DNA of 34,027 nt, taken from IMG/VR virus record IMGVR_UViG_3300027265_000051, positions 1 through 34,027 of that record; one strand, given 5' to 3'. Both the position numbers and the translations under genes were made by a program. The stretch is from a virus (lineage: Duplodnaviria > Caudoviricetes). How positions within the stretch are numbered: position 1 is the stretch's first letter; every line of letters starts with the position of its first letter. Positions 4,788 through 34,027 of the stretch are shown in pieces. A model generated the notes under the pieces. That model was not told the origin of the DNA. It saw only the letters and a list, made by a program, of their open reading frames with translations, and did no database searches.

Positions 4788-4908
4788 ATCTTTTTTTGAT
4801 AGATATGGAAAAATGAAAAGTGTTTTAAGAATTAAGATTGTTGTGTATATGGGTCAATTAATCTATTTTTGTTTTTGTACTATTCTTTTATTCAAATACA
4901 ATTAAGTT

Positions 4909-5724: not shown

Positions 5725-5780
5725 AATAAAAAGTTAATTTAATTATTTATATATTTAGAAAATTAGTAGTTGCAGAATTA

Positions 5781-6236: not shown

Positions 6237-6238
6237 AA

Positions 6239-6781: not shown

Positions 6782-6786
6782 ATTGA

Positions 6787-8127: not shown

Positions 8128-8163
8128 ATCAATTTTCTTTTAGATATATTTTTTTTATGACTG

Positions 8164-8580: not shown

Positions 8581-8629
8581 AAAGTTTATTTACAATAGAT
8601 ATATAAAAAGCAGAACTGTTATAAAATAG

Positions 8630-8663
8630 AAACCCCCTCAAACTATTCCAGTAGTTGAGGGGG
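8630..8663 (-). terminator. Intrinsic terminator (- strand)
   Basis: CCCCCTCAA/TTGAGGGGG stem with a T-rich tail on the - strand. Confidence 0.7.
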
Positions 8664-8685
8664 AATTATGAAAACTAAAATTTAA

Positions 8686-9135: not shown

Positions 9136-9139
9136 TAGA

Positions 9140-9655: not shown

Positions 9656-9689
9656 ATATATTTTTCTCCTTTATTATTAAGTTTAAAAT

Positions 9690-9713
9690 CTGAGGGGCTT
9701 TAGAACCCCTCAG
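9690..9713 (-). terminator. Hairpin or partial terminator after the capsid gene
   Basis: CTGAGGGG/CCCCTCAG 8 bp stem. Confidence 0.65.
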
Positions 9714-9725
9714 TATTTTTTATAA

Positions 9726-10634: not shown

Positions 10635-10658
10635 AATTTTTTTCTCCTTATATTATTT

Positions 10659-11309: not shown

Positions 11310-11352
11310 ATCCTAAGTCTATTTTTCTCTATATATATTTATGTTTTTTTTG

Positions 11353-12042
11353 TTAAACCTTTTTTGAAATAATCTCGTTTATTTCATTGTAAATTTGTTT
11401 ATCAGATTTATCAGCAGCATTGATAATGCTGTATATTCTGTTATAAATGTCTTTGTCGGAAATTTCTTTTTGATAAAACAATTCATCATTCAAAAAATAA
11501 CCTTCCACTGAAAAACCTGCTGTACCGTTGTTGTAGTGTACTTTTAAAAACTTCCAGAGTGATTCATCTTCAATTTTGAAGCTTCCCCACCAGTCACCCT
11601 TCCAAACATCAGAAAAACCCCTTGCTCTGGCAGTGCTTGAAGTTTATGGGTCTGTTTCAATCCAAGATTCAAATACATAAACTCCTTTAGAAATTTCATA
11701 GTTTGAATGTTCAAGATTTGTTTTATGATTATTGCTTTTTTTCATAAATAACTGAGCGCAATCTCTAATTGTATCTTCTGAAAACCAGCAATAATACGGG
11801 TTGCCTTCTACGTCCAATCTTAATATGTTTAAATTTGGCCTCATAAAACAGCCTGTTAAAATTCTTTTTTCATTGACTTCATTAAACTTATATTCTCTTC
11901 TTTTTAGTGGTTGTTTAACTGATGAAAACAGTTGAAAATTCAACTCTGTAGCTGGACTCTGAACTATACTAATTAAATTCAAGTCACCCTTAATTTTATC
12001 TTCTTCTTTTAAAAGAAATTCAATAACTCTGTAATCTTCCAT
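11353..12042 (-). pseudogene. XkdF-like prohead serine protease interrupted by an in-frame TAA at 11644-11646
   Basis: ISIVQSPA, NLEH and FESWI lie before the stop; the same frame continues TSSTARARGFSDVWKGDWWGSFKIEDESLW...GFSVEG to a TAA at 11353-11355. Confidence 0.85.
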
Positions 12043-12079
12043 ACTTATTTTTCCTGTATATATATTTATTTGAAATCTG

Positions 12080-14149
12080 TTAGAAAGTTGACATAACTTC
12101 AACCTTGCTTACATTCTTTTGTGTTTTGGTAATATCACTTTCAAGAACATAAACCATTGTAGGGGGCTGGTTCCCGTTTACTGAGGGATTACCAAAAGGT
12201 GTAAAGTTTGTAGGAGTTCCACCTCCAGAGCTAAATAAAGTCTGGTTGTTTGGTGTATAAGCTCCTCCAGCAGGATTTGAAGAAATTGCTGGTGCTGCTG
12301 GTGCTGTTGATGAAGTGTCTGCACCGCCTCCATCATTAGGAAATTTCTTTGAAAGAATTGCAGCAATTGTTGCTGCTCCCTGTATACCTGTAGCTATTTG
12401 TAAAGGAATAGCAAAAGGAGGGGGAACAGTTGCAGGTATTTTCATAATCGCTTGCAGCGTGTTAATACCAGTCTCTACAGCACTTGTTGCTTTGTTTACA
12501 TTGAATGCTGCTTTCTGTCTTTTCTTTGCCTTTTCTGTGTTACCGTCTGAAATGTTATCCAGAAATTCAAATACAGAATTTCCTATATCCTTCATTGAAG
12601 AAGCCATACCTCCATAGTAAGACAGCTCTTCTGCTCTTAATGTGTTTACTGCTTTGTTATAATCAGCTTGTAATATTTGCCCGTCTTCATAAAATGCTTT
12701 TAACATATCTCTTTTCACTTGCAAAGTTTCGCCAAGCCTCATTATCTCGTCTGAATATTCACCGTCTCTTATTCTCTTTTTTTCTTCTGCATCTGCTAAA
12801 TATTTATCTGTTGCATCAGTTCTTAAATCAGTATTAATTTCAGGCTTTTCATCAGTACCAAGCATTGCTTCATTTATTGCTTCAATAGCTGCTTTTTGTG
12901 CATACAATGATTTAAGTAATTCACTTATTGAAACTATTAGCTTGGGGTTATTATCAGTTATAGCTGCTTTCAGCTGCTTTTCATAATTTGAAATTTCTTC
13001 AATCAGCTTACTATAGCTGTCTGTGTATTTTTCAACTTCTGCTGTTGATTCCGCTGTTGCTGTTACAGATTCTGAACCTGTTTTTTTAACAGTTAATCCT
13101 AATTCTTTAAGCTTTGCATCAAAATCAGTAGTTGCTTTCTCTGCTTCTGCTGTTAGTTCTATATTTTTATTCAAATAATAGTCTTGCTCTTCTTGGGCTT
13201 TTACTTGTGCATCATAAGCGTCTTCCATAGCTTCTTGTTTAAGCGCACCACCATTTGCTGTCATATCAGCATCTGCTTTATCATAAGCTGCTTTTGCAAT
13301 AAGTAAAGTTTTTGTTTTTTCAATTAATAATTCTTGCGAAGCCAGTGCTTGAGATTCCAGATTAATTAATTTTATTTTTTCTGGAATTAATAACAGAGCT
13401 TTTTGTCTGGCAAAATTTATATCTGTTTCAGTGGCTAAACTTGTTCCAAGCTCCTTGTCTAATTTTTCTAAGGCTGTTTTATAGTCACCCGTCTTTTTGC
13501 TAACATCTAATAATGTAGTTTGAACTTGGGTTAATGTTGTAATTTGTTTTGCTGCACTGTCAGCTGCTTTTGTTTGTATCTCTAAATATAATTTTGCTTC
13601 TGTAGATGCTTTCTTTTGTGCTTCTGTTTGTGTGTCATAATTTGCAGCAACAACAACTAAAGCTGTAGCAAGTGCAAGAACAGCAGATAAAGCAAGACCC
13701 CAAGGGTTAGCTTTCATTGCAGTTGTAAGTGCTTTTTGTGCAATAGTTGCAAGCATTGTTGCACCTTCATAAACCCTTGTTGCACTACCAGCCAGAGTTA
13801 TTACAGCAATGTATTTTTGCAACTGCTTCTGTAACTCAACCATATTATCAGAAGAAGAGCCAGCAAGCAAAGCAATAGAGGAAACCATTTGTGTTACACC
13901 CCCAGCAAATTCAACCATTTTAAGCCCAAGTTCCTTTGTGCTTATTCCTTGTAAACTTGTATTTAATGTTTTTAATTTAGAATCAGCTGTTGTTATTTCA
14001 GCTTGTAATGCTTTGAACTCAGCAGAGCCTATAGGCTTTGATTCTAATTCTTGTCTAAGTCCAGCAACCTTTTGTTTAAGAGTTTCAAGTGTTTCTGCAC
14101 TGTTTCCAGCATCTACATTTAAGGATATATTTAAAACTTCATCTGCCAT
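12080..14149 (-). CDS. tail tape measure protein
   Basis: 689 aa, Ala-rich helical; AMKANPWG motif; C-terminal YVLESDITKTQ. Confidence 0.85.
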   Translation of the reverse strand: MADEVLNISLNVDAGNSAETLETLKQKVAGLRQELESKPIGSAEFKALQAEITTADSKLKTLNTSLQGISTKELGLKMVEFAGGVTQMVSSIALLAGSSSDNMVELQKQLQKYIAVITLAGSATRVYEGATMLATIAQKALTTAMKANPWGLALSAVLALATALVVVAANYDTQTEAQKKASTEAKLYLEIQTKAADSAAKQITTLTQVQTTLLDVSKKTGDYKTALEKLDKELGTSLATETDINFARQKALLLIPEKIKLINLESQALASQELLIEKTKTLLIAKAAYDKADADMTANGGALKQEAMEDAYDAQVKAQEEQDYYLNKNIELTAEAEKATTDFDAKLKELGLTVKKTGSESVTATAESTAEVEKYTDSYSKLIEEISNYEKQLKAAITDNNPKLIVSISELLKSLYAQKAAIEAINEAMLGTDEKPEINTDLRTDATDKYLADAEEKKRIRDGEYSDEIMRLGETLQVKRDMLKAFYEDGQILQADYNKAVNTLRAEELSYYGGMASSMKDIGNSVFEFLDNISDGNTEKAKKRQKAAFNVNKATSAVETGINTLQAIMKIPATVPPPFAIPLQIATGIQGAATIAAILSKKFPNDGGGADTSSTAPAAPAISSNPAGGAYTPNNQTLFSSGGGTPTNFTPFGNPSVNGNQPPTMVYVLESDITKTQKNVSKVEVMSTF

Positions 14150-14199
14150 AATATCTATTTTCCTATAGATATTATTTTTCTGATTTTGTTTTTGGAAAT

Positions 14200-14226
14200 A
14201 AAAAACCCCTCAGAAAATTGAGGGGT
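14200..14226 (-). terminator. Intrinsic terminator (- strand)
   Basis: ACCCCTCA/TGAGGGGT stem with a T run on the - strand. Confidence 0.75.
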
Positions 14227-14235
14227 GTGTACTAT

Positions 14236-17200
14236 TTAATAATTTTTGAATAGGTACAACAAACCCCCTACACTTTCCGAGGTTGTTGAGCTTCCTGTTA
14301 AAGTTGATGTGATACCAGTTACTATTGACAATATTGTTGAATATAAATTTGTGCTTCCTGAGTAAATTGTAGAAGCAGACAACACCCCAAGCGAAGTACT
14401 ACCTGATACTTGCAAATTATTTAAAGTTGCTGCACTTATGTTAATTGTAGGTAAACTTTCAGTGCCTCCAGTATATGTATTCAAACCATTTTGAACACTC
14501 ACAGAAGCAGAAGCTCCAGAACTCCCCCCTCCAATAGTTTGAAAAATATTATACAAGTCAGTACTACCAGAATAAATTGTAGTTGCTGATAAAGCATTTA
14601 ATAGAGTTGCTCCAGTTACTTCAAAATTTGCTTCTGGTGCAATGGTTCCTATACCTACGTTCCCACTGTTATCAATAGTAACAGCAGTTGCCCAAGTGAG
14701 AATATTTCCAGACAAACCAACTGGAGCAACATTAAAGTGAATCTTACCCTTTGCTTGTAATATTTGAGATGCAGCATTATTTGAATCATAAGCAAAGCCT
14801 GTACCCCCTAAATTTCTTGCATAAGAGTTAGAACTCCATAAAGACATATCATACCACTGCTGAATAGATGAAGAGCCATAAGAACCCCCCTCAAAAGTTA
14901 TATAGCCTCCATTCCAATTATTAACAAAGCTGTTAATATGGAGTGTACTTCTTGGTATAATGTAATCCCCTAATCCTGTAAACCCAGATACATAAAGAGT
15001 TTCAGCACTTATAATGTTGGTAGAAACTGAACCTGTAAACACAGTAGAATCACTTCTAATTATATTACCCCCTACTATAGAAGCACCTTCATACTTGCTA
15101 TCAATAGTTAAACCGCTGCAATTAAAAGCTCTTACATTGCTTACACCGTCTTCAACAACACAATCAGAGCAGCTATACAAAGAAATATTTCTACAACTTG
15201 CCCCTACAGTATTTCCATTACCTTCAATTAATATCTCATCTGCATAATCTGAAATAATATTTTTCTTTCCCTTTATATGATTGACAATTGCAGTACTTGC
15301 AATTATATTTGAAAAATTATTTTGCTGCTGCAAAAGTGTTGCAATACTGATATTACCCATAGTATGAGCAGTTGCAACAATTTTCTTTTTCTTCTGGGGA
15401 ACCAGAGAGTAACAGTCCTCCCAAGTATTTAAGCTTACTTGAGTAAGTGAATTTTTAACTGCTGGGTTGTAATCCTTAATTTCATTAATGATGTAAATTA
15501 CATTATCAATAACAATTTTATCAGATAAATTCAGAGTTGCAATATCAGATTCATTTAGCAAAAACCAAGCTGTTAATTGCTTTCCTTCGCTAATCTGCTT
15601 AATTGTATTGTAATGATATAAATTGAAAACATTGTTTTCAGTTGTCCAAAAGTTATCTGTAAAGTAAGCCTTGCAGCTGCCAAAGTTCAAATCAAAATCA
15701 GGTTCAGTAGGATTGTCAAAGTGACCAGCATAAGTATAAGCAGAGTAAGAATAAGTTATTGAATTTCCTGTATCTGCAAAAGTCCAGTTTCCATTTATTA
15801 AACCTCCATCATAAAGAATATGTAGACCGCTTGGTTGTCTGCTATCAATTGCAGGTACAATTAAATTTCTACAATAAACATTTGGTGTATCATTAAATAT
15901 TAATTCTTTCTTGTCTTCACCTGTGATTGTTTCAGTATTGAATACAATTTTCTTTTGTCCAAAAACCTCATTGTAATTTTGCTGATATAATTTAGAAAAT
16001 TCATCTTCTGCATTCTTATATGTAAAAGTAATTTCTTTGTTCTGGAGGTCAGGCAAATATTTAATTTGCTGTTCTTTTGACCTGTCAATCTTAGAACTCC
16101 AATTGTGATAAACAGCAGTAGAATAATAAGCATCCCTTGTTTTTAATAAAAATTTGTTTGTTTCACTCTTATCAACATCCAGATAAATGTTGAACATCTT
16201 CAAAAGATTGCTTACAAAATCCTTTTGTTTAACATTCTTTGGGATATAATCATTAATCTGTACTTCATCCCCGTAGTATCTTACACAATCAGTCTGAGTT
16301 AAACCCCAAGCTGTACCAGCTTTTGTATATAATGAAACACTTGCACCAAGACTTGTATTTATTCTGCCATAAATAAATTCAATTTTTACTTGGAAATTGT
16401 CACCGTTTAATGCAGCAATGTTTGTGAAGTTTACACTTCCAACTGCATTACTTGGCTGGTCTCCCCACACTGTAGCAGGGCCTGCACTTATTTGTGTTAA
16501 ATAAGAACCGTTTTTCCAAAGTTGAATCCAGAGCCTTGCATACCAAGCATTGTTATAAACTACGTGAAAATTATAATCAACTTTAAAGTTTTTATACCCC
16601 CCCGTGTTCACCTGATACACACCCGTTGTTATATCTGGCTCCCCGTATGTATTCTGAAAGAAAGGATAGGTTGTACAGTCATCAAAAACAATTGTCTTGT
16701 ATAAGTGTGTTGGATATATGGCAGAATCAAAAGTATCAGCAGACATTTGAACATAAAAAGATTCATCTGATAATGTACCAGCATCCTTTTTAAAATCCTT
16801 ACCAGTAAAAGGAATAAGTATTTTTCCAAAGTCTCCAGTATGTAAAGAGCTGTTGTTGTAGTGATACCCAGCATCTGTAAAGATTCTATCAACATAATTT
16901 ACAGCAAAGATTGCTGGCCAAAAGTCCTGAACTGTGTAATCCTGATTTGTATTATACAGGTTTATGTACTTGTATGTGTCAAGATATGTATTACCTGTTG
17001 TTGCCATAATATCAGCAGGTACAAGGTTGTGAGGATATAAATTAAAATCAATATCCGTTAAATATTTATCACTTATTGTTGTGAAAAAATCTACTGCTGA
17101 GTTGTAAAGAATGATGTTGTAACCAATAATACTATCTTCATTCCAAGCGTTGTTGCTGGGGCTTTTAATGATGTTGTCTAACTGAACATATCCTTCAAAT

Positions 17201-17475
17201 ATATTTATACCGTTACAATAAACAACAGCCTGATATTTTACATTCAAATTGAAAGTGAAGTCTGAACTTCTGATATTATAAAGCTGACTGAATAATTGGT
17301 TGTTGTTCTTGGTTCCTTTAACAGTAATAGTTTTAGAATAAGAACCTCCTCTTTTACTTATGTCTGCAATGTCTGCAACCCTATAATTAAGGCTAACAGG
17401 AAAGGTATTATCAACATCGACATAACCCTTGTCTTTGATATAAAGCTTTACTTCGTTGTAAATGTTTTCTTCCAT
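14236..17475 (-). CDS. large tail tip / baseplate protein with C-terminal fibre-like extension
   Basis: 1079 aa; SYSKTI..KGTKNN, KQKDFV..L.KMFN, GNVGIGT; internal repeat LSATTIYSGSTDLY / LSASTIYSGSTNLY. Confidence 0.8.
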   Translation of the reverse strand: MEENIYNEVKLYIKDKGYVDVDNTFPVSLNYRVADIADISKRGGSYSKTITVKGTKNNNQLFSQLYNIRSSDFTFNLNVKYQAVVYCNGINIFEGYVQLDNIIKSPSNNAWNEDSIIGYNIILYNSAVDFFTTISDKYLTDIDFNLYPHNLVPADIMATTGNTYLDTYKYINLYNTNQDYTVQDFWPAIFAVNYVDRIFTDAGYHYNNSSLHTGDFGKILIPFTGKDFKKDAGTLSDESFYVQMSADTFDSAIYPTHLYKTIVFDDCTTYPFFQNTYGEPDITTGVYQVNTGGYKNFKVDYNFHVVYNNAWYARLWIQLWKNGSYLTQISAGPATVWGDQPSNAVGSVNFTNIAALNGDNFQVKIEFIYGRINTSLGASVSLYTKAGTAWGLTQTDCVRYYGDEVQINDYIPKNVKQKDFVSNLLKMFNIYLDVDKSETNKFLLKTRDAYYSTAVYHNWSSKIDRSKEQQIKYLPDLQNKEITFTYKNAEDEFSKLYQQNYNEVFGQKKIVFNTETITGEDKKELIFNDTPNVYCRNLIVPAIDSRQPSGLHILYDGGLINGNWTFADTGNSITYSYSAYTYAGHFDNPTEPDFDLNFGSCKAYFTDNFWTTENNVFNLYHYNTIKQISEGKQLTAWFLLNESDIATLNLSDKIVIDNVIYIINEIKDYNPAVKNSLTQVSLNTWEDCYSLVPQKKKKIVATAHTMGNISIATLLQQQNNFSNIIASTAIVNHIKGKKNIISDYADEILIEGNGNTVGASCRNISLYSCSDCVVEDGVSNVRAFNCSGLTIDSKYEGASIVGGNIIRSDSTVFTGSVSTNIISAETLYVSGFTGLGDYIIPRSTLHINSFVNNWNGGYITFEGGSYGSSSIQQWYDMSLWSSNSYARNLGGTGFAYDSNNAASQILQAKGKIHFNVAPVGLSGNILTWATAVTIDNSGNVGIGTIAPEANFEVTGATLLNALSATTIYSGSTDLYNIFQTIGGGSSGASASVSVQNGLNTYTGGTESLPTINISAATLNNLQVSGSTSLGVLSASTIYSGSTNLYSTILSIVTGITSTLTGSSTTSESVGGLLYLFKNY

Positions 17476-17480
17476 TGTGC

Positions 17481-18941
17481 TTATATATTGAGGGGTCTGT
17501 TATTGCTTAATTCAAAGTTTACTGTGTACTGAATCAAAGCATCTTTTAAACTTGTCTTTGTTGTAAATGCAGTATCTGTAATGCTCACAGGTATGTAATC
17601 AGAGTTATCTGTAGCAGCTACAGAAGTGAATTCTGTGTTTTTAATATTAAGATAAACCTGCTTTGAAAGAAATAACTGTTCAATAAATTCAGCTTCTTCT
17701 TCTGTCATATACTCAGAAACTACACTGTATTTCTTTTGGTTCTTTACACTGTAAAGGCTCTTTGTTGCTGAGTTTACACTGTATTTATACTTTCCGTTTA
17801 CTAAGTTGTAATCTAAAGCCTTTTTTATGTAATCCCTTGTTATGTCTGTACTCTGGCTGGTTATAAAATGGAAATTAAAAGGAATGAAGCCCCCAAATAA
17901 ATCTTCAAATAACAATTCTACATTGTCTTCTGGTTTGCAAGTTGTATCAATTACAAATCTTTTCTTTTCGCTTAACTGCTGGCCTATACCGTTTATGTAG
18001 TGTATTGTGTAAGCTGGTGTATTAGTGGTTATAATTGCACTCCCATAACTTGCATTTAGATTTTTCGGGAAAGCTGGAGTTAACAATATACTGTTTGTTG
18101 TTGCACTGGTTCCAGTTAGATTGTAAGTTGAACCTCCTTCAATCATAACCCTCAAAGAGACTACACTACCAGAAGCAGGGCAAACAATATTTAAGTAACC
18201 AGAGTTGCTTGTTCTTACATTGTAGTTGTCAGGTAACTCAGTTAAAAACTTGCTGTTTGCATTGTTGATTGTGTAAGTGCTTGCAGTGTAGTTTATATAA
18301 TTTTCGTGCTGTATTGCAAAGTTTCCAACTGTTATTGCTGTAGTTGTAAGACCTGAGTAAACTATTTTTCTATTGTCTTGGTAAGCTGTAAGCCCCCCTT
18401 CTGGGGCTGTTGCAAGGAGAAAGGGGTAATCAATTACAATTGCTTTTGTGTTTGGAACAGATACAACTCTATGTACTCCTTCATAGCCTGAGTTAGTAAA
18501 ACCAGCAGTTTGAGCAATAAATACATAGTCACCAATTACATATTGGTGTACTGTAGTACCAGTAAAACCAACCTTTCCAACAAAGCCAGTTGATGAACAA
18601 TAAAAGTTGTCTGTAAAAGGCCATTCATATTTATACTCTTCACCAAGTTTCAAATTAAAGTTTGTTTGCTGCTCTGTATTTGGCTTGTAGCTGTTCCAAG
18701 ATAGATTAAAAGGTTCATCAGTTATAAAATCAGAACATATAGAAGCAACTTCACAATAGCCAAAATAATTATCAGTAGGTATTGAAGGAACCTTTAACCT
18801 TCTGATGTAAGTTGAACCAGAATACAAATCAATGATGTAATTAAACCCCGTGTTTGTGTTGGTTGTGGAAGACATAACCAAATGAAATGGGTTGTATGCT
18901 GGTTGTATAGTGTCAATATTTGTGAGTAATGTTACTGCCAT
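17481..18941 (-). CDS. tail protein (distal-tail-like)
   Basis: 486 aa, beta-rich; QPAYNP N-terminus, FEDLFGG, LFLSKQVY; adjacent to the tail tip gene. Confidence 0.7.
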   Translation of the reverse strand: MAVTLLTNIDTIQPAYNPFHLVMSSTTNTNTGFNYIIDLYSGSTYIRRLKVPSIPTDNYFGYCEVASICSDFITDEPFNLSWNSYKPNTEQQTNFNLKLGEEYKYEWPFTDNFYCSSTGFVGKVGFTGTTVHQYVIGDYVFIAQTAGFTNSGYEGVHRVVSVPNTKAIVIDYPFLLATAPEGGLTAYQDNRKIVYSGLTTTAITVGNFAIQHENYINYTASTYTINNANSKFLTELPDNYNVRTSNSGYLNIVCPASGSVVSLRVMIEGGSTYNLTGTSATTNSILLTPAFPKNLNASYGSAIITTNTPAYTIHYINGIGQQLSEKKRFVIDTTCKPEDNVELLFEDLFGGFIPFNFHFITSQSTDITRDYIKKALDYNLVNGKYKYSVNSATKSLYSVKNQKKYSVVSEYMTEEEAEFIEQLFLSKQVYLNIKNTEFTSVAATDNSDYIPVSITDTAFTTKTSLKDALIQYTVNFELSNNRPLNI

Positions 18942-18943
18942 TT

Positions 18944-19324
18944 TTAATTATTTATTAATTCGTTTACTACTTCTTTAAATTCTTTCTTTCCCTTCAATGT
19001 AAGCAGTACAGCCTTTCCAAATTGCTCAAGTATTGCTTTTGAAAATATCTCAATACTCTCTTTATATGCTGCACTTGCCTTTATCATTTGCAACATTGTT
19101 TGTTTCCCTTTCTCCAGCCTTGTTGCTTCAACGTGCTTAAAGTAAAACGGTGCTTTAATTGAAAACACAAACTGAGTTTTTCCCCCGTATGAATTAGTCA
19201 AATACCTAACTTCACTTGAGTTTAGCATAAAACCGCTTTTAACGTGTCCTTCTTGTTTTATTATGCTTTTCAACTCTGTTGTTAACTTGTCCGTTATGAT
19301 TATAGCAGCATCTGCAATTTTCAT
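18944..19324 (-). CDS. putative neck / tail completion protein, paralog B
   Basis: ELKSIIKQEGHVKSGFMLNS...APFYFKHVE. Confidence 0.6.
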   Translation of the reverse strand: MKIADAAIIITDKLTTELKSIIKQEGHVKSGFMLNSSEVRYLTNSYGGKTQFVFSIKAPFYFKHVEATRLEKGKQTMLQMIKASAAYKESIEIFSKAILEQFGKAVLLTLKGKKEFKEVVNELINN

Positions 19325-19327
19325 TTT

Positions 19328-19696
19328 TTACTTTTTAATATTCAAGTTTGCTATTACCATATCCCCCAGCAATCTTTTCAAGTAGTCCTTTGTCTGGTTC
19401 TTTACATCATAAGCCCCGTCTAAATAATTCTGGAACTCTTCTAACTTGCTGCTGTATGTATAACTGTTTTTCAGCATTTCAGTAAGCTGAAATTCACTGT
19501 CTACATATTGCCAGTAATAAGGTGCATTGTATGAGATAACAAACTTATTCTTTGAAATCATTGGTACATAAGCAACTTCAATTTGAATGCTGTTATACAA
19601 CAGCCCCGTTTTAACGTGACCTTCTGCTTTAATGATTGACCTTATTTCATTGGTTAAATCAGCACTGATTATGTTTAAAATTTCAAATAATTCCAT
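19328..19696 (-). CDS. putative neck / tail completion protein, paralog A
   Basis: EIRSIIKAEGHVKTGLLYNSI...APYYWQYVD; the TG.L..SI and Y..YV patterns resemble HK97 gp10-like proteins. Confidence 0.65.
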   Translation of the reverse strand: MELFEILNIISADLTNEIRSIIKAEGHVKTGLLYNSIQIEVAYVPMISKNKFVISYNAPYYWQYVDSEFQLTEMLKNSYTYSSKLEEFQNYLDGAYDVKNQTKDYLKRLLGDMVIANLNIKK

Positions 19697-19723
19697 ATTA
19701 CTTTTTCTTTGAAATATATTTTC

Positions 19724-20236
19724 TTATAAATTGTTTTGAGGAAAGTTTACATCTGACCAATCCTTTACAGGCAGACCACAATAAGAGTTTACATTTCTTA
19801 TTTGTATGTATAAAACAGTTGACCAGCCAGCAGCAAATTCAGTAACAGTTTCTTCTTCTGGAGTTAAATTAACTGAGGTTGTAAGCTCAATCAGGTTTTC
19901 TTTAAAGTAGGGGTGACAACTCATCAGGTTAACTATGTCCTGAATGATTTGGAAAGTATCACTGTACACTTCACTTTTGTTTGCCTCTCCTTTGTCCAAT
20001 CTATCCAAAACTCTTATGTATAAAGAGAATTGAACAGTATTAAACTTTTTCGTTTGGTTAGATTTTACAATGTTTGATGAAAGTGGTTTTACTTGGAGCA
20101 GGGGAAAGTTCACTTTCCCGTTGCTTTCGTTCAGCTCCCAATTTTTCCCCACAAAAAAACCTTTGATTTGCAAATGATGTTTTGCAATTTCTTCCATTAC
20201 TTTCAGAATCTGGTTGTATGTAATTATGTTTGACAT
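19724..20236 (-). CDS. putative tail terminator protein
   Basis: TYNQI...HLQIK.F, NFPLL, SDTFQIIQDI and AGW patterns; size and position fit. Confidence 0.6.
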   Translation of the reverse strand: MSNIITYNQILKVMEEIAKHHLQIKGFFVGKNWELNESNGKVNFPLLQVKPLSSNIVKSNQTKKFNTVQFSLYIRVLDRLDKGEANKSEVYSDTFQIIQDIVNLMSCHPYFKENLIELTTSVNLTPEEETVTEFAAGWSTVLYIQIRNVNSYCGLPVKDWSDVNFPQNNL

Positions 20237-20524
20237 TTAGCTTTTATTTTTTAATTTCAGTTCTTGCATTTTCATTTGTTTTTCATACTGTTCATCTCTC
20301 AACCTCCAATATGTAAGCAGGTTTAAAGCCAGTATGTAATTTTGTTTATACACTTCATCAAACTTTGTTATGTCACCGTTTGCCAGCTTCTCAACCAAGC
20401 CAAACCAAACAAAATTTGCTAAAGGGCTGGTTCTTTCTGCTCTGTCTTCTCCACTGCCTCCCCCGTTGTTAAAGAGTTTCCAGAATTTCTTTCCATATAA
20501 CTCATTGCGTTGCTGAAAAAAAAA
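20237..20524 (-). CDS. tail assembly chaperone, -1 frameshift extension (GT-like)
   Basis: No ATG start; frame is open across the T9 slippery run; WFGLVEKLANGDITKFDEV. Confidence 0.75.
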   Translation of the reverse strand, partial: FFFQQRNELYGKKFWKLFNNGGGSGEDRAERTSPLANFVWFGLVEKLANGDITKFDEVYKQNYILALNLLTYWRLRDEQYEKQMKMQELKLKNKS

Positions 20525-21057
20525 GCACACAACCCAAATACATCTGCAATACTTACATTTTGCTCTATAGTGCTAATGAATTCTGTGAATTTCTCAGCTT
20601 CAAATTCAGCTAAACCCCCGTTGTCAGTCCTTTTTCTTAGCATTAATGCCAAAGAAGGAGCAATTAAGTTTATAAAACTTGGGTCTTGCTGTACGTACAC
20701 TTCCAAAGAAATCATTTCACCTACACTAAACTTGTCAATGTCACTTTTCACATAGTACTTTTCCCCCAGAATCTCAATTTCATCAATAGTTTTGTTAGGA
20801 ATAACTTCTTCCAAGAACTTCAGAGTAGTAATAATTGCATTGAAATCAGGTATTGTAAGCTTATATACTTCTTCAATTGAAATTGAAAGCACCTTTGAAA
20901 GCAAAGCAGCAACTCTTTGAGTGCTGTTAATGTCCTTTACTAAATCCTTACCCTCCAAATCCTTTATTTCAACAATTCTTTTGTAGCAAGAAATGGATAT
21001 TTCTTCCCAGCTTTCGGGAACCTGTACTTCATTACCGTTTAAATTCAGTTTCTTCAT
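20419..21057 (-). CDS. tail assembly chaperone (G-like)
   Basis: VPESWEEISI N-terminus; contains GCT TTT TTT TTC slippery site (AFFF). Confidence 0.75.
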   Translation of the reverse strand: MKKLNLNGNEVQVPESWEEISISCYKRIVEIKDLEGKDLVKDINSTQRVAALLSKVLSISIEEVYKLTIPDFNAIITTLKFLEEVIPNKTIDEIEILGEKYYVKSDIDKFSVGEMISLEVYVQQDPSFINLIAPSLALMLRKRTDNGGLAEFEAEKFTEFISTIEQNVSIADVFGLCAFFFSNAMSYMERNSGNSLTTGEAVEKTEQKEPAL

Positions 21058-21093
21058 TTTTTATTTATAGATATATCTTTTGTGATTCTGTTT

Positions 21094-23659: not shown

Positions 23660-23697
23660 TTGCGTATTTTCTCCTATATATAAATATTTGATTGTTG

Positions 23698-23973
23698 TTA
23701 ATTGATGTATCTGTTTTCAATTTTTATAAAGAGCAGGGCAATAAGAGCAGCTGCTATTGCTGTATAAACATTCCCCCCACTTAATATTAAACAAGTCCAG
23801 AAGGAGCTGCATTTAATGCAGGTTAGCACCTTGTAGAGTTGATTGTACAGGAACAGGATATTTTTATTCTTAATTGTTTTTTGAAGTCTGTACAAGAAAA
23901 GCTGGAGGGGTTCAAAGTTGACAAGGAACCAAGCCAGCAGAAAAGATTGTAGTATAAATATGTAGTTAATCAT
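23698..23973 (-). CDS. small membrane protein with CxxC
   Basis: LTCIKCSSFW between hydrophobic segments. Confidence 0.7.
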   Translation of the reverse strand: MINYIFILQSFLLAWFLVNFEPLQLFLYRLQKTIKNKNILFLYNQLYKVLTCIKCSSFWTCLILSGGNVYTAIAAALIALLFIKIENRYIN

Positions 23974-24544
23974 TTGCTCTGGGGTCTTGAATGTTTGAAT
24001 CTTTTATTATCTGCTTTATTTCTTTGAGATATTTGAAAATGCTGATATAACTTATGTGTGTAAGCTTTGCAATTTTTCTGATTGAAAGGTTGCTGTTGAA
24101 GTACAGGTTGAATATTGAATTGTATATGTACTTTTTTTTATCTGATAATTCAGCAGCTTCTAAAGAAGCTTTTGCTCTGTTGTAAACAATTTCCTTTTGT
24201 TCTTGTATTGTTACTTTGTTTTCTTCATCGGCCTTTTGAATATTATAGTTGTAGTTGTTGGTTAAATCGGACATATATATTCTGTCTTTAAAAAATTTTC
24301 TCTGGAATTGTGAAGTAGGGGAAAAGGCCATATTTTGAATCATTGATATAACATAGTATTTGAGTTCACCCCTATTGTAAATCTGTTTTATTTTTTCCTC
24401 TGGCTTTTCCAATAAGTACAAAGCCAGTTCTTGCATTATATCAGCAGCCATAAAAGAGCCATACATAACAGCACACTCTTTTACATCTCTTTCAAGATAT
24501 ATTTGATTTACAATCTGGGCCAGGGTTTGAGCTGTTAGAATCAT
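23966..24544 (-). CDS. sigma-factor-like protein 3 (candidate late sigma)
   Basis: Region-2-like ADIMQELALYLLE and LKYYVISMIQN; region-4 HTH LSIRKIAKLTHISYISIFKYLK. Confidence 0.7.
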   Translation of the reverse strand: MILTAQTLAQIVNQIYLERDVKECAVMYGSFMAADIMQELALYLLEKPEEKIKQIYNRGELKYYVISMIQNMAFSPTSQFQRKFFKDRIYMSDLTNNYNYNIQKADEENKVTIQEQKEIVYNRAKASLEAAELSDKKKYIYNSIFNLYFNSNLSIRKIAKLTHISYISIFKYLKEIKQIIKDSNIQDPRAND

Positions 24545-24546
24545 AA

Positions 24547-24912
24547 TTATAAAAAAAGCTCCTTCACTTTGTTTTTCATTCTTTCAAATGCTGCTATATC
24601 ACTTGGAGTTAAGCCCCCGTAATACTTCTGAATTATTTCTTTTGCACTGTCTTCTTCAACCTGTAGCACTTGCATTACTTTCTGGCAAACTTCAAACTCA
24701 TCTTCTTTAATTGCAATATGAAGCAGTGAGTACCATTCTATCAAACCTTTTATGTACATATTAGCAACATCATTTTTTGTTTTTCTCTTGCTTAATATTT
24801 CCTCAATCCAGTCTGTATTTTCAGGTTCCTGTTTATTTATAAGCAAAAGCTCGTCTATCTCTTTGCTTATAAGCTGCCAGTCAATCTTATTATTTACATA
24901 CTTCTTTTTCAT
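24547..24912 (-). CDS. hypothetical protein (121 aa)
   Basis: Operonic ORF; AIKEDEFEVC helix pair weakly resembles a UVR motif. Confidence 0.7.
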   Translation of the reverse strand: MKKKYVNNKIDWQLISKEIDELLLINKQEPENTDWIEEILSKRKTKNDVANMYIKGLIEWYSLLHIAIKEDEFEVCQKVMQVLQVEEDSAKEIIQKYYGGLTPSDIAAFERMKNKVKELFL

Positions 24913-24930
24913 CAGCTTCGCTTTGGCTCT

Positions 24931-25182
24931 TTAGATTGAATTATCAATTTCTTTTATATATTCTTTGCCCTGTTCAACAGTGAAGCCATACTTCACAAAT
25001 TCTATTGCAACACCTGCAATTGTATTTTCTTTGAACTTCTTGCAATATTCAATTGCAAATACAGAACTCTCGTCTCCTTGTGCAGCTTCTCTTTCCAGTC
25101 TTTTGATGTTCTGGTTATGATGAAGTAAATAGCAGCGTATTTGCTCTGTTAAATAATCTGGTACTTTGTTTTTTGTTTTCAT
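24931..25182 (-). CDS. hypothetical protein (83 aa)
   Basis: Operonic ORF with ATG start. Confidence 0.7.
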   Translation of the reverse strand: MKTKNKVPDYLTEQIRCYLLHHNQNIKRLEREAAQGDESSVFAIEYCKKFKENTIAGVAIEFVKYGFTVEQGKEYIKEIDNSI

Positions 25183-25184
25183 AT

Positions 25185-25352
25185 TTATTTCTTTTTATTT
25201 TTCATAATCCAGTAAGTTGCTCTTGAAGCAAATAACATTGCATACATTGTTATAATTAAGTCTGGAACTTTCATAATGAGTAATTGAAAGAATAAGATAA
25301 ATAAGCTTGTGATAGTAAATATTATTGATTCTTTAAGTTCTGTTGTTTTCAT
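25185..25352 (-). CDS. 55 aa two-TM protein (not in ORF track)
   Basis: MKTTELKESIIFTITSLFILFFQLLIMKVPDLIITMYAMLFASRATYWIMKNKKK; stop lies 2 nt before the next ATG. Confidence 0.6.
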   Translation of the reverse strand: MKTTELKESIIFTITSLFILFFQLLIMKVPDLIITMYAMLFASRATYWIMKNKKK

Positions 25353-25443
25353 TATATTTTGTTTTTATCAGAACCTTTACCCCCGTCTACAAGCACAATG
25401 AGTGAAAAAGACTTGAAGACTTTGGGGGCTTTGGTTCCTTTGT

Positions 25444-25632
25444 TTATTTATTTTTCAACCAGCAAACAATTTCTAAGTTGTCATCTTCATTGGTGTATAT
25501 TTCAATTCTCTCTATTTCAAACTCTGTAGACTCTTTCAGTGACAAACCCATTATGTATTGATATTCATTTAACCCATTTTCAAGACAGAATTTTTTTAAT
25601 CCTTCTTTGCAGTATTCTCTTTTGTATTTCAT
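25444..25632 (-). CDS. hypothetical protein (62 aa)
   Basis: ATG preceded by the CTATTTAT motif. Confidence 0.65.
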   Translation of the reverse strand: MKYKREYCKEGLKKFCLENGLNEYQYIMGLSLKESTEFEIERIEIYTNEDDNLEIVCWLKNK

Positions 25633-25677
25633 AATTTTTCTTTGTTTTATATAAATAGGTAGAAAAAATAAAACCGC

Positions 25678-26232
25678 TTACTTTTTCAGGTGTTTTTTTA
25701 ACTTTTTTTTTGTTCTGTGAATTATTACTTTAACATTTTCTTCTTTCTTGCTGTATTTACGGGCAATTGCTGGTGCAGACATATCATTTAAAAGATAATC
25801 AATAAGTATGTTTTTTTCAATTGGTTTTACATTTTTCTCAAGAAAATCAATAACTTTTTTCTTTAGAATTTTGTAATCAAACTTGTCTTCACTTGTTAAG
25901 GCTCCAACATCTTCAATAGCTTCTATAATATCCAGTTCACTTTTATCAGCTTCGCTTGGGCTGTTTACAATAATTGCTTGCAGCTTATTTATTTCAAATT
26001 TATATGCAACAGTCCTGTAACGGTCTACAAGTGCATTCTCAACCATTTTGAAAATAAAAGTCATTTCAGAACCAACTGAGGGGTCAAAGTTTTTATAGTT
26101 AAGCAGAAACTTTGCAGCAACACTTGAAGCAATGTCTTCAACTGCATCTGGGTATATTCTTTTCAAAAAACATACATTCTTAGCAGTGCTGTAAGCCCTG
26201 TTGTATATTTTATTTTGCTCCATTCTGTTCAT
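25678..26232 (-). CDS. ECF-type RNA polymerase sigma factor (sigma 2)
   Basis: DAVEDIASSV...NFDPS...TFIFKMVENALVDRYR (region 2); MSAPAIARKY..KEENVKVIIHRTKKKLK (region 4). Confidence 0.85.
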   Translation of the reverse strand: MNRMEQNKIYNRAYSTAKNVCFLKRIYPDAVEDIASSVAAKFLLNYKNFDPSVGSEMTFIFKMVENALVDRYRTVAYKFEINKLQAIIVNSPSEADKSELDIIEAIEDVGALTSEDKFDYKILKKKVIDFLEKNVKPIEKNILIDYLLNDMSAPAIARKYSKKEENVKVIIHRTKKKLKKHLKK

Positions 26233-26983
26233 TTTTCCTTTTCCTTCTGTACTTCTCAGCTTTATACAATATCTCTGCTTTGTGCTTTAAATAATACTGT
26301 TGTCTGCTTTCTTTGTATGATAACATTTCTTTTTCTTGGGGTGTTATTCCTAGTTTATTTTCTGCAATCTTTATGAATTTTGTTATTGTGTCACCTTGCA
26401 AAAGCTTTTTTGTATATCCGTTTTCATACATATATTTTGCAATAAGATTCCCTGTAATTGTTTCTGGTAATACATCAATAATCCTGTATTTTAATTTTAT
26501 TGCTATGCTTTCCTTTTCATCCAAACACTCCAGTTTATTTTTTATGAGTTCTTTAATAAGAAACAGTTCATATTTATCTTCACCTTTGTTTTTGTAGTTC
26601 TCGAAAAAAATACTATCAAACACTCCTTCATATTTTCCCTTTTCTTTAATCCTGTCAGGAAAATGTACAGTATCATATTTTCGTTTTTCTCTGTATAAAA
26701 TAGTTTTGAAGTAATTAGTCAGGTAGGTTGTAAAGGCTGCATTTCCTTCACTGTAGGCTGAAATTGCTTTTAACATATAGAAATACAAATCTTGTTTAAG
26801 GTCTTGTAATAGCTGCCTGTCATAACTTGTTTGAATGCCGTTGTGTTTATACACAGATGTATAATATGCTTCAAAGTAGTTTTTACAGTGGTTGTATAAA
26901 TCCAGTAGAGCCTTTTCATCATAGCTTTCCTTTATCCTTCTTACAAGTCCAGCAACAATTATATTTCTTTCTTCACTTGTCAT
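26210..26983 (-). CDS. sigma70-family factor (sigma 1)
   Basis: DLKQDLYFYMLKAISAY....AAFTTY (region 2); LDEKESIAIKLKY...IAK...IKIAENKL (region 4). Confidence 0.8.
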   Translation of the reverse strand: MTSEERNIIVAGLVRRIKESYDEKALLDLYNHCKNYFEAYYTSVYKHNGIQTSYDRQLLQDLKQDLYFYMLKAISAYSEGNAAFTTYLTNYFKTILYREKRKYDTVHFPDRIKEKGKYEGVFDSIFFENYKNKGEDKYELFLIKELIKNKLECLDEKESIAIKLKYRIIDVLPETITGNLIAKYMYENGYTKKLLQGDTITKFIKIAENKLGITPQEKEMLSYKESRQQYYLKHKAEILYKAEKYRRKRKNEQNGAK

Positions 26984-27092
26984 TTCTTATTTTCTCATAA
27001 ATAGTCTGAGAAAATTAAAAAGCAACTACTTTACCTGCATATGTTCAGGAAACCATTGCAGCAGTAGCAATGAAAATTATTCAGGGGTTAAT

Positions 27093-27129
27093 AAAAACCC
27101 CCTCCTGTAGATAAATTTTCAGGGAGGGG
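27093..27129 (-). terminator. Intrinsic terminator (- strand)
   Basis: CCCCTCCTG / CAGGGAGGGG bulged stem with a T run on the - strand. Confidence 0.6.
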
Positions 27130-27149
27130 AAAAGAAAAACGTATGTGAA

Positions 27150-27620: not shown

Positions 27621-27703
27621 TTTGTTTTCTTTTTTTTAATAAATAGGGAAAAAAAAATAAAATCAAAAAAAACCATTAAATTTGAGTAACAAAAAATTGA
27701 CAA

Positions 27704-29100: not shown

Positions 29101-29219
29101 TTTTCTATAAATAGTAAAAAAAAATATTTGTTTGAACTTTTCTGAAAATATTTTTTTACTGCTTTTACTAAATATAAACATTTCAAAAAGAAAAATCAAA
29201 TATTTTTTCTGAATGACAT

Positions 29220-30457: not shown

Positions 30458-30961
30458 TTGGGGGTGCAAAAACTAAAGGATATAAATAAGGGTAACTGGG
30501 GAGGTAGAAGGGAGACCACCGCCTTTTTTACTGAATTGCAAGAAAAAAAGATTTTGCATTGTGTCAGAGGAACAGGGGGGAAAGTTGATAGAGATTACTG
30601 GAATTATATAACTACAAAGCATTTGCAAGAATACATTTTAAAATACCACTTCAAGAAGGTAAGTGAAGATTATGTTTTAAAGCTCTTTAAAAAATACAAC
30701 TGGATTAAGGTTAAAAAAAACAATAAAATATACTGGAAGAGACCCCCAGCACCTGAACCAAAAGTAAAAAGGGCAAAGTACAGAACAGAAGAAAAGCTAC
30801 TGGATTTAATATACAAATTGAAAGACCTTATGTATATGGAATATGATAAAGTAGTTACAGACGAACAGGCCAAGAAATTTTTCCAAAACCCCAACTGGAA
30901 AAAAAATATTTCAGAAGTTAATTATTACGTTTACTTTGAAGATTTAGAAGAAGACGAATAA
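30458..30961 (+). CDS. basic hypothetical protein, possibly DNA-binding
   Basis: 167 aa, Lys-rich; start uncertain (TTG 30458 or GTG 30464); TACCTTTG element at 30386-30393. Confidence 0.6.
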   Translation: MGVQKLKDINKGNWGGRRETTAFFTELQEKKILHCVRGTGGKVDRDYWNYITTKHLQEYILKYHFKKVSEDYVLKLFKKYNWIKVKKNNKIYWKRPPAPEPKVKRAKYRTEEKLLDLIYKLKDLMYMEYDKVVTDEQAKKFFQNPNWKKNISEVNYYVYFEDLEEDE

Positions 30962-31377
30962 TTTTAAATCTTGCTATCGGGATAAGTCAACCCTACATCT
31001 ATTTATTTACAACTGTTTGGACACTGTTCAATAGTTTTCCCTCTTTTTTTATTTGTTTGCTTTATATCATCGCCTGATGAAATAAAAGTATTTACTATAA
31101 TTTTTTAAGTTATCGTTACAAAAACAAATTAAAAAGAAAATAAAATGCAAACACCTTATAAATACAAAACCTCTAAAACCCCCGTAAACTCCCACTTTTT
31201 TTAACACTTTTTCCTTATATAATTGTTACACATCGTTCTTATAAAAGTTTGGTTACATAAAGTGGCAGAGTAAAATAAATAATTCTGTTTGGTTACGGTC
31301 TCTGCCACTTTTTTTTTAAGATTTTGCTTATATAATCATACAACTCACAATAATTAATAACTAAAAAACAAAAACCT

Positions 31378-32142
31378 ATGAAAAAGTTAAATGAAAAAAC
31401 ATTAGCAGAAATTAAAGCTGTAATTGCAAAGCACACTACAGCAAGAGAACGCAAAGCAGAACTTACAAGGGCTGGTTATTATATCAGCAGAGAAAAGGTA
31501 GTTAATTGTTCTATGATTAATATGGAGCTACCTATTATCTATTCATTCAAGAACATTAATCTTGTTCAAATTAGCAAGCCAGTTATGTTTAATAATAGTT
31601 ACTGGGCTTGGTGTGCAGTTTTCACACATCTCGTTAAAATTACAGAAGTAGAACACAAAGAAGAAAAAGCTAATAAAAAGCAATTAGCAGCAGGTAATAT
31701 ATTTAACAAAGATAAAGTTAAGCTTTTCATCGCAAATGATGATAGTGTTGATTATTTAACAATGGATGGTGTTTCAGAAGAAGAAAGAGAATTTTATAAA
31801 ATAGGCTCAATAACAATGAAAGCATTAAAAAGCCATTTAGAAGAGCTGCTAAAAGAAACACGTTTTTCAGTTATAACAAAGGGTTCTGGATTTTTTGAAA
31901 TTGTTATGAAAGGCAAAAGAAGCTTTGACTTCAATTGTTACAAAGAATTCATTGAGCTATTCAAAAAACACAAAAGCGTTGGCAAACCCACACAATTAAC
32001 AGATTTACTTCTTGAATGGGAGAAGACGTATTACATAGATTCATATTCAAGTGTGTATGACATCAACTCTTATGCTACTGATAAAGGCTTTTATACAATT
32101 TTCTTTGATATGGAAAAAGGAAGGTTTGGAGCAAAAAAATAA
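31378..32142 (+). CDS. hypothetical protein (254 aa)
   Basis: Long ORF with A-rich leader; no family recognised. Confidence 0.75.
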   Translation: MKKLNEKTLAEIKAVIAKHTTARERKAELTRAGYYISREKVVNCSMINMELPIIYSFKNINLVQISKPVMFNNSYWAWCAVFTHLVKITEVEHKEEKANKKQLAAGNIFNKDKVKLFIANDDSVDYLTMDGVSEEEREFYKIGSITMKALKSHLEELLKETRFSVITKGSGFFEIVMKGKRSFDFNCYKEFIELFKKHKSVGKPTQLTDLLLEWEKTYYIDSYSSVYDINSYATDKGFYTIFFDMEKGRFGAKK

Positions 32143-32354: not shown

Positions 32355-32723
32355 ATGCCAGACCTAAACAACATACAAGAGCTTATTAACACTGTTCAGC
32401 AGAATCAACAAGATATTGCTGCTCTAAAAGCTCTTGTTGCAAAGCTGCAAGAAATGGTTGTAGACCCAGAAAAGAAAGCAGAGTTGAATGTTGATGAAGA
32501 TTGTGAGGGCTTTTATACAATAGATGAAATTGTAATGAAATACGAAAAATCTGTTACAACTATTGGTAAATGGAAAAAACTTGTACACCTCAAACCTGCT
32601 GGAAAGAAAGGAAAGAAGACAAAGTACAACAAAAAGAAAGTTGAAACTTGGTACAAAAAAATAGAGTTGCTAAAAATTAGCAACCCTGAGTTATTTGAAG
32701 TAAAAATTAAAAAGGCCAGTTAA
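32355..32723 (+). CDS. excisionase-like HTH protein
   Basis: N-terminal coiled coil, then FYTIDEI...KSVTTIGKW...KY.KKKVETW; convergent with the integrase. Confidence 0.65.
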   Translation: MPDLNNIQELINTVQQNQQDIAALKALVAKLQEMVVDPEKKAELNVDEDCEGFYTIDEIVMKYEKSVTTIGKWKKLVHLKPAGKKGKKTKYNKKKVETWYKKIELLKISNPELFEVKIKKAS

Positions 32724-34027
32724 ATTAAATTGTCACTGGCAAAGAATTTGTCAACTTTATAATCTTCTTTGGCGAAAGTGTCTCTATAAATAATTAAAGT
32801 GTCTACTTTCTTATGTCCTGTCATACCCATTATATCAACTATATTAAAGCCTGTTCTAAAGCAATTTGCAACAAATGTACGTCTGCCAGTGTGAGACCCT
32901 ATTTCTTTGTATTTAGCAACTGTAGTAGTAATCTCTTTGTTGTTGACTCGTGTTTTTACTTTAATATTTTGCTGACAAATCTTTTTATCTACCAGTAATT
33001 TTTTAATCATTCTGTTGTACACCTGATTTTTAAAACGGGTAAAGTTGTAATCATATTTTTTTATTAGTTCTAAAGTACTTGGTTTTATCGGCACTGTAAA
33101 CATACCCGTTGTCTTTTGAGCTTCTTTTGTTATCCACTTTTCATTTTCATCTATCATTGATTTTTCCAGACTATAAAGGTCTGAATACCTCATTCCAGTG
33201 GCAATTAACACAATCATATAATCACGTAGAGCAATCTCAGTTTCATTTGTCAGCTCTAATGCTTGCAGTTGTTGAATTTCTTCTTTCTCAAGTATTACAA
33301 TTGTTGTTTTGTATTTCAAGTCTGCAACTTTATACTTTTCAACTTCTGGGTCAATTGATATATGTTTTTTTACATCCAGCCAGTTAAGAAATACTTTTAA
33401 ATAGCTTATTCTTTTTGATACTGTGTTGCCGTTTAACTTACCTTCAACCGTAACTTTTCTCTCTTTCCCTTTATCAGTTGTAATTGTGATTTGAATATTA
33501 ATCGCACCGCTTAAAAACTTTTCAAATGCTTCAATGAAATCCCCTGAGTTCATTGTATTCAATGTCAAGTCACCGTATTTTTTTTGGTATGCAAGCAGTG
33601 CATTCTTATTGCTTACATAGTCCTTACAACTATCTTTAACTCTTACTTTTTTGTCACCGTCTATTTTAAACTTGTAGAACTGGTCATAATAAGGCTCAAA
33701 GTTGTCTGTTTTTTTTAATTGTATTTCTTGCTCTGCTTCTGTTTTGGCTCCGTTGGTGCTTAGTTGCAGTTTTACATAATCAACTGGAGGCTTTACATCA
33801 TTCAGCTTTATATAGTCATTAATAATTTTGTTGACCTGTTGCAGCTTGGTTGCAATCAAACTGTTTTTGTTAACAAAGTCTTCAACCTTTGCTGTTAGTT
33901 TTCCATTGCTAAAATATTTCACTTCATCAATAACTCCAGTAACTCCAGTACTTACCCTTATTGATTTGTTGCTGTTCTTGTAATATATTTTTACAGAACC
34001 TTCTTTGATAACTGCTTTAGCAAACAT
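32720..34027 (-). CDS. int: tyrosine integrase
   Basis: TGMRYSDL (R), AQKT (K), SHTGRRTF (HxxR), MTGH...IIY (H, Y); N-terminal arm-binding-like region. Confidence 0.95.
   Translation of the reverse strand: MFAKAVIKEGSVKIYYKNSNKSIRVSTGVTGVIDEVKYFSNGKLTAKVEDFVNKNSLIATKLQQVNKIINDYIKLNDVKPPVDYVKLQLSTNGAKTEAEQEIQLKKTDNFEPYYDQFYKFKIDGDKKVRVKDSCKDYVSNKNALLAYQKKYGDLTLNTMNSGDFIEAFEKFLSGAINIQITITTDKGKERKVTVEGKLNGNTVSKRISYLKVFLNWLDVKKHISIDPEVEKYKVADLKYKTTIVILEKEEIQQLQALELTNETEIALRDYMIVLIATGMRYSDLYSLEKSMIDENEKWITKEAQKTTGMFTVPIKPSTLELIKKYDYNFTRFKNQVYNRMIKKLLVDKKICQQNIKVKTRVNNKEITTTVAKYKEIGSHTGRRTFVANCFRTGFNIVDIMGMTGHKKVDTLIIYRDTFAKEDYKVDKFFASDNLI

Follow-up and report, generated by a model that had tools for sequence, protein, structure and literature searches.

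The 34,027-nucleotide (nt) stretch of DNA analysed here as one window (IMG/VR record IMGVR_UViG_3300027265_000051; Duplodnaviria, Caudoviricetes) contains a prophage with three sigma-like genes, sigma 1, sigma 2 and sigma 3, and two classes of promoter-like motif. The favoured reading, held with modest confidence, is that these parts make up a compact sigma cascade that times lytic transcription. Class A promoters, of the form CTATTTAT, would be recognised by sigma 1 and/or sigma 2, among them the one ahead of their own operon and the one ahead of the operon with sigma 3. Class B promoters, of the form AACA-N14-ATAT(A/C)TA and located at the genes for packaging, head, tail and lysis, would be recognised by sigma 3. 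In the lysogen the relay would be off, with the sigma 1/2 operon lying behind a terminator-like hairpin and lacking a perfect host promoter. Weak host transcription from the sigma 1 site may serve as a trigger, since this site reads TATTTATG, one invariant base off the host element TAHHTTTG. What we infer is RNA polymerase binding and promoter use by the three proteins; the genes and their order, the positions of the motifs, the attachment sites and the co-occurrence in relatives are observed. The relay likely descends from lytic ancestors resembling phage P12024S, in which sigma 3 would be core and the upstream sigmas accessory.

Sigma-like genes and promoter-like motifs

All three open reading frames (ORFs) that the initial annotation had called sigma-like are present on the minus strand, and support for them is graded, strongest for sigma 2, then sigma 3, then sigma 1. 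Sigma 2, of the extracytoplasmic function (ECF) type, scores above curated cut-offs with Pfam Sigma70_r2 (E 5e-6) and TIGR02937 (60.5 vs 42.9 bits), and a Sigma70_r4 match (E 0.002) gives it both region 2 and region 4, as in the sigma-70 family. Sigma 3 as a single sequence stays under the TIGR02937 cut-off (E 3e-4). Its family has 290 representatives at E<=0.001 (clusters at 50% identity), and a profile of 89 sequences (the query, P0002 and 87 near-full-length matches among the 150 listed) aligns at full length with RpoE (9n9q, E 2e-5) and SigW (E 7e-4), so that regions 2 and 4 are both found through the family profile. The AlphaFold2 (AF2) model of sigma 3 (predicted local distance difference test, pLDDT, 89; predicted template modelling score, pTM, 0.56) has sigma factors as its top fold matches, with a best Foldseek E of 0.004 (none in the PDB reaching 0.001) and a VIA Z of 9.1 at a root mean square deviation of 17, values in the range in which helical proteins match by chance. 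Profile and structure comparisons both lead to sigma factors, the latter weakly.

Compared pairwise, the three proteins have no detectable similarity outside region 4. Word-index homologue searches return the query itself or one relative at most, sigma 1 being without a close homologue, and neither tblastn of GenBank phages with the window sigmas (none found) nor locus scans using sigma alignments add anything further. A single-sequence AF2 model of sigma 1 (pLDDT 41) was discarded. The 121-aa protein encoded next to sigma 3 has no homology detected by sequence to its positional counterparts in relatives, and complex prediction of the two neighbours scores 0.00.

The class B scan pattern, AACA-N11-15-ATAT(A/C)TA, was drawn from the window itself. 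With the strict N14 spacer it yields eight sites, all on the minus (coding) strand and 35-45 nt ahead of genes downstream of sigma 3, compared with 0.03 in shuffled upstream regions (maximum of 1 in 300 shuffles); a looser site lies at 19735. The claim that the AACA class precedes only genes downstream of sigma 3 holds at eight of eight sites, and sigma 3 itself lies behind a class A motif, the layout of an SPO1-type cascade. The names of the late genes come partly from position and weak matches.

Relatives were chosen by portal: 22 of the longer among 80 portal loci, plus L001 and the Nonlabens (Persicivirga) phage P12024S, whose portal is the closest among cultured phages. Members of the sigma 3 family are present in 19 of these 24 records and in 9 of the 9 that are at least 90% complete, usually shortly ahead of the terminase genes. 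In P12024S this is gp33, four genes before the large terminase, which matches the sigma 3 profile (E 2e-7). An AAC-anchored scan finds AAAACA-N15-CGTTAAT before six P12024S genes, a motif that is an observation of the present analysis and not from a paper, and AAAC-spacer-TTCTATTATA lies ahead of the tail chaperone in G756, G757 and G761. L043, the closest fragment (portal 54%), lacks the sigma region; five of its genes, each orthologous to a class B gene, are preceded by the bipartite motif. Because phages with one detected sigma have this AAC-spacer-(-10) layout, sigma 3 is the likely class B reader, and its use of these promoters seems quite probable. G774 has two TIGR02937 matches, rejected as extra sigmas since both are sigma 3-family copies near its two ends.

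Class A, CTATTTAT behind T-tracts, occurs six times in the window, four times on the minus strand (29114, 27646, 27004 and 25658), and three of the minus-strand sites lie 21-26 nt ahead of start codons. As had been noticed at the outset, the sites at 27004 and 25658 precede the sigma 1/2 pair and the sigma 3 operon. The site at 27646 precedes a putative nuclease gene, whose identity rests on Pfam PDDEXK_14 (E 0.03 at best). The count by itself is not above chance (Markov mean 1.4-2.5), and, corrected for selection, 49% of shuffles yield some equally shared 8-mer, so class A is weak inside the window alone. The host promoter element is TANNTTTG, and host promoters typically have AT-rich tracts upstream (PMC6847099). 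Neither motif class equals this element, which occurs at four other window genes, and no perfect copy lies within 300 nt upstream of sigma 1. The earlier observation of two non-host motif classes stands as to their difference from the host element and for class B, which is far beyond chance, but not for the class A count in the window. A generic sigma-70 promoter scan gives chance level (57 vs 53). Between the nuclease gene and sigma 1, a longer G/C stem with A/T tails can be read by eye at the terminator-like region.

A TIGR02937 scan of 57 records undercounts, since the second sigma of G752 escapes it, as do sigma 3-family genes known to be present in G773 and G778. Most relatives have the sigma 3 family alone detected, and a second ECF-like gene is found in one lineage (G750, G762, G788) and in G752. 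The sole record with three matches is G771, a free relative that is half complete, and its order is that of the window, with overlapping long-type and ECF-type genes followed by sigma 3 before the terminases. In G772 and G793 the long-type sigma is directly preceded by T-tracts and CTATTTAT. Fixed from the window, this motif is thus found at two of three extra long-type sigma genes, vs 6 of 1,566 upstream regions and none of 44 sigma 3-family genes. In G772 (93% complete, no PF00589 match), the extra sigma has T-tract-(C/G)TATTTAT and the virion genes have TACAATATTT. Because CTATTTAT is tied to the extra sigma in relatives, class A appears to be a real feature associated with the upstream sigma despite its weak count in the window, which fits autoregulation. 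That sigma 1/2 use class A promoters is slightly favoured. A further candidate for a second sigma, L189 2551-3069, was dropped for its weak profile match and poor alignment.

Several observations weigh against this cascade. All sigma 1 matches fall below curated cut-offs (PHROG 1740 E 4e-6, TIGR02937 E 9e-4, Sigma70_r2 0.03); its region 2 side is matched, region 4 is without any Pfam match, and its ESM Atlas structure rows are chiefly sigma clusters, yet below the bar for naming. A profile of the three relatives' extra sigmas matched sigma 2 (E 7e-4) and not sigma 1, and direct BLAST of sigma 1 with G793 gives E 0.17. G771 carries ATATTTAT and not CTATTTAT. The half-complete record G793 yields no sigma 3 and has CTATTTAT also ahead of a gene that lies directly before the large terminase, and for G772 the identification of sigma 3 is weak (hhalign E 0.003, probability 10%). 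Among 13 other sequences in the AAC-anchored scan, four have no clear motif (G750, G752, G754, G755), G751, G753 and G758 have weak ones, and the G159 prophage has none. Classes A and B also have a TAT.TA core in common.

The wiring first proposed survives in part. Co-conservation, the comparison that had been suggested for it, links sigma 3 with the late AACA motif strongly and sigma 1 or 2 with CTATTTAT, including that of their own operon, moderately. It does not single out which sigma would read class A.

Timing of lysis and the lysogeny question

The initial annotation had described a temperate phage of 33 kb, and both size and attachment (att) sites bear this out. The prophage spans 611 to about 34,293 (33.7 kb), so that the window, in whose positions all coordinates are given, consists of prophage and 0.6 kb of host flank; the 10 kb right of its end (L002) were also examined. 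The last 13 bp of the tRNA-Pro recur as the attR core 254 nt beyond the window end (window-equivalent 34281), an arm-like 25-bp repeat lies inside both ends (left copy at 669-693), and the CpG observed/expected ratio is 0.1-0.6 inside the prophage vs about 0.7-1.2 outside. A tyrosine integrase, terminases, portal and capsid-like genes are encoded in the window, and the element has host flanks.

A first alternative is that autoactivation by sigma 1/2 forms a bistable switch of its own, through which the choice of lysogeny or lysis is made without a repressor, as had originally been suggested. Between the att sites, a six-frame search for a CI-type repressor found no HTH_3 (helix-turn-helix, HTH) match over the cut-off (best E 0.09, inside a late gene) and no S24. 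A repressor past the window end is excluded, and no gene has been lost on the right side, because the 254 nt between the window end and attR contain no ORF; no phage ORF separates integrase and attR. Also suited to a switch are the class A motif at the head of the sigma operon, seen here and in two relatives, and the missing perfect host element upstream of sigma 1. The term repressor-less holds as far as the CI type is concerned, but three window proteins (165, 254 and 122 aa) are possible regulators that could repress. The 165-aa gene has a host-type TAnnTTTG element 11 nt upstream.

The relatives argue against a switch. Both motif tiers are also found in viral relatives that lack a tyrosine integrase, such as G772, and no such integrase was detected in 32 other viral records or in the 24 near-complete ones among them, in a search that covered tyrosine integrases and not serine recombinases. 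The group does have integrated members, its portal being matched in 10 of 401 and in 21 of 401 of the genomes sampled. One, the intact-looking G159:C22, has a single sigma-like gene, recognised by position and eye with no hidden Markov model (HMM) match, and a weak CII/YmfL-like HTH gene near it. Because relatives without integrase have the same parts, the relay is probably no dedicated lysogeny switch, and the bistable alternative is unlikely. Equally unlikely is its fuller form, in which a phage turned temperate without a repressor by inheriting a self-activating sigma loop that is off by default and gives lysis past a leak threshold, set by the third sigma through polymerase competition. 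As a separate observation, the G159:C22 region at 360-400 kb (L123-L124) encodes a tyrosine integrase and a serine resolvase, and CTTAT(T/C)TGA is repeated there ahead of virion genes.

The state of this copy also bears on a switch. Its head-maturation-protease-like gene has an in-frame TAA, which a Logan contig from the same reads repeats without difference; six homologues align uninterrupted across the stop, and the L043 orthologue is also without it. No replication gene is recognised by family profiles in the window, where two genes there have no informative match. The prophage copy is probably defective and may be incapable of making virions. In the source run its depth is 144.5 vs 143.8 for host contigs, which fits a quiet lysogen (runs X1 and X2 appear to be one data set), but this silence may reflect decay because of the protease-gene stop and the lack of a recognisable replication gene.

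A more doubtful alternative is that only sigma 3 regulates phage genes, class A being a variant host promoter or read by sigma 3, while sigma 1/2, as accessory genes, redirect or compete for host RNA polymerase. The detection of just the sigma 3 family in most relatives suits it, and class A shares 4-5 of the 6 invariant bases of TAHHTTTG, behind AT-rich tracts that are host-like (PMC6847099). Bacillus phages are described as having sigmas that are non-essential and host-directed (10.1101/2021.11.12.468384). It fits poorly with the tie of exact CTATTTAT to an extra sigma gene in two of three relatives, and the true TAnnTTTG elements of the window sit at other genes.

Finally, it is very improbable that sigma 1 and/or sigma 3 are HTH activators, on the model of the ArpU/RinA-type late activators, or decayed relics: the sub-cut-off matches, the decay signs, several fold matches that span the C-terminal HTH only and the DUF1492 and YlxM clusters among structural neighbours are outweighed by the full-length ECF-sigma alignment over regions 2 and 4, the intact frames and the bipartite motifs with their fixed 14-nt spacer.

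Host, mapped features and side observations

The window proteins are located on a host contig of about 1 Mb. The integrase matches Phage_int_SAM_5, and the flank encodes a large protein with what we take, by eye, to be a type IX secretion tail; together these point to a Bacteroidota host. Pieces of a near relative turn up in a soil run, where short contigs, separate from one another, cover the regions of the integrase, of sigma 1 and of sigma 3; zero cover of sigma 2 there (X3) carries no information, as depth is merely 4-6x. The RNA run examined holds nothing but short spurious pieces, the tRNA is the sole Rfam match in the window, and PADLOC gives weak matches at most.

Table 1. Mapped features of the prophage, in window positions
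Feature	Position	Strand	Basis
attL core, 13 bp, 3' end of tRNA-Pro (547-623)	611..623	+	repeat comparison
Seven class B sites, AACA at 21092, 14190, 12081, 11354, 8620, 8165, 4824; genes behind them: tail chaperone, tape measure, protease, scaffold, 138-aa, portal, 200-aa gene	4800..21092	-	motif scan
Head-maturation-protease-like gene, in-frame TAA at codon 133 (11644-11646)	11353..12042	-	homologue alignment
First class B site, AACA-N14-ATATATA, heads CxxC gene and small terminase	23675..23699	-	motif scan
Sigma 3, 192 aa, widespread phage sigma family, likely late sigma	23966..24544	-	profile, fold, relatives
121-aa gene abutting sigma 3	24547..24912	-	similar-sized genes at this position in many relatives
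Class A site, heads operon of four small genes and sigma 3	25651..25658	-	motif scan
Sigma 2, 184 aa, ECF-type sigma-70, overlaps sigma 1 end	25678..26232	-	Sigma70_r2, TIGR02937
Sigma 1, 257 aa, long-type sigma-70-like, basic tail; candidate middle sigma	26210..26983	-	profiles
Class A site CTATTTAT, upstream T-tracts, 21 nt before sigma 1	26997..27004	-	motif scan
Terminator-like hairpin region between nuclease gene and sigma 1 promoter	27083..27135	-	scan, 27083-27102
Class A site before 156-aa putative PD-(D/E)XK nuclease (27150-27620)	27639..27646	-	motif scan
Fourth class A site, in non-coding gap 28580-29270, before 14-codon ORF, AACA 14 nt upstream	29107..29114	-	
165-aa and 254-aa genes, candidate repressor or replication protein	30464..32142	+	no informative family match
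Excisionase-like HTH gene, 122 aa	32355-32723		convergent with integrase
Tyrosine integrase, convergent with excisionase-like HTH gene	32720..34027	-	family profile matches

CpG is markedly depleted over 624-34027 relative to the host flanks, and an HsdR_N-like nuclease gene lies at 1633-2742. Just past attR (L002 11428-16365), genes for an SOS-response-associated peptidase, an XRE-HTH pentapeptide-repeat protein and a WYL-like regulator can be recognised by eye; they lie outside the prophage because CpG there is host-like. At 20237-21057 a tail-chaperone-like gene has an overlapping second frame near a T run, both parts being kept in relatives, and a programmed frameshift is probable. The AT-rich non-coding gaps 28580-29270 and 30962-31377 contain short repeats and a class A site, with no Rfam match, and may be an origin or encode a small RNA. 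Four small genes at 29273-30273 lie behind a host-type TAnnTTTG element; two resemble each other by eye, a 536-nt stretch of the region is skipped in the soil relative, and they are likely lysogen-expressed accessory genes.

In six genomes (G618, G537, G714, G507, G566, G643) head, tail and portal genes of the same phage family lie in separate islands. Two of them were read gene by gene (G618:C37 228-288 kb, L143-L145; G537:C1 2795-2855 kb, L146-L148): a sigma 3-family gene is retained, and host genes named by eye (iscS, fur, purA, sucB) lie between the islands. Several islands have ACA-spacer-CCAATTA upstream in common. These island-split relatives may be domesticated phage, possibly a Bacteroidota gene transfer agent, for which no literature precedent was found, and they are perhaps of greater interest than the sigma finding itself.

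Relation to known systems

The analysis points to late transcription from AAC-spacer-(-10) promoters as the likely function of a large unnamed phage protein family in an abundant Bacteroidota-type phage group. If functional, the sigma-promoter pairs would be candidate orthogonal expression parts for Bacteroidota, and P12024S, being in culture, could be used to test them. Should the loop control lysogeny as well, it would be a switch by positive feedback instead of repression. The open-access literature yielded no report of sigma 3-family promoters or of a sigma-based lysogeny switch. A published survey of over 3,400 genomes reports at most three sigma genes in any one of them; the 0.7% with three are all phages of Bacillus, the extra sigmas are sporulation-like, and no more than two Bacteroidetes phages have a sigma gene at all (10.1101/2021.11.12.468384). 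The present element is like these multi-sigma Bacillus phages in having three sigmas, but its host is of the Bacteroidota, and it would extend three-sigma phages beyond those of that survey (10.1101/2021.11.12.468384).

P12024S (genus Inhavirus) resembles the prophage in five homologous virion proteins, encoded in a similar order, in gp33, whose annotation is Sigma-70 region 2, and in the AACA-type motif before virion genes. Unlike the prophage, it has one detected sigma, no integrase, a primase and helicase, and CGTTAAT as its -10. Its portal has 21% identity over half its length and genome-level similarity to Inhavirus is not found, so it appears to be a distant relative only.

The ECF sigmas (SigL, SigW and RpoE of PDB 9n9q) have the same region 2 and region 4 layout, and an AAC-containing upstream element, as in class B, is the ECF consensus; identity is, however, 10-14%, and a cognate anti-sigma was not identified. 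In the lambda-type CI/Cro switch integrase and excisionase lie beside att, and the prophage likewise has an integrase and an excisionase-like gene beside att, with tRNA insertion, but it is without the HTH_3 and S24 matches of such a system.

The Bacillus phage SPO1, large and strictly lytic, has the sigma cascade gp28 -> gp34/gp33. The present element differs in being 33.7 kb long and integrated, in its Bacteroidota host, in having a third sigma and in a first tier that may be autoregulated. What the two would have in common, as proposed here from sequence, is a phage sigma that turns on a later phage sigma, with separate middle and late promoter classes.

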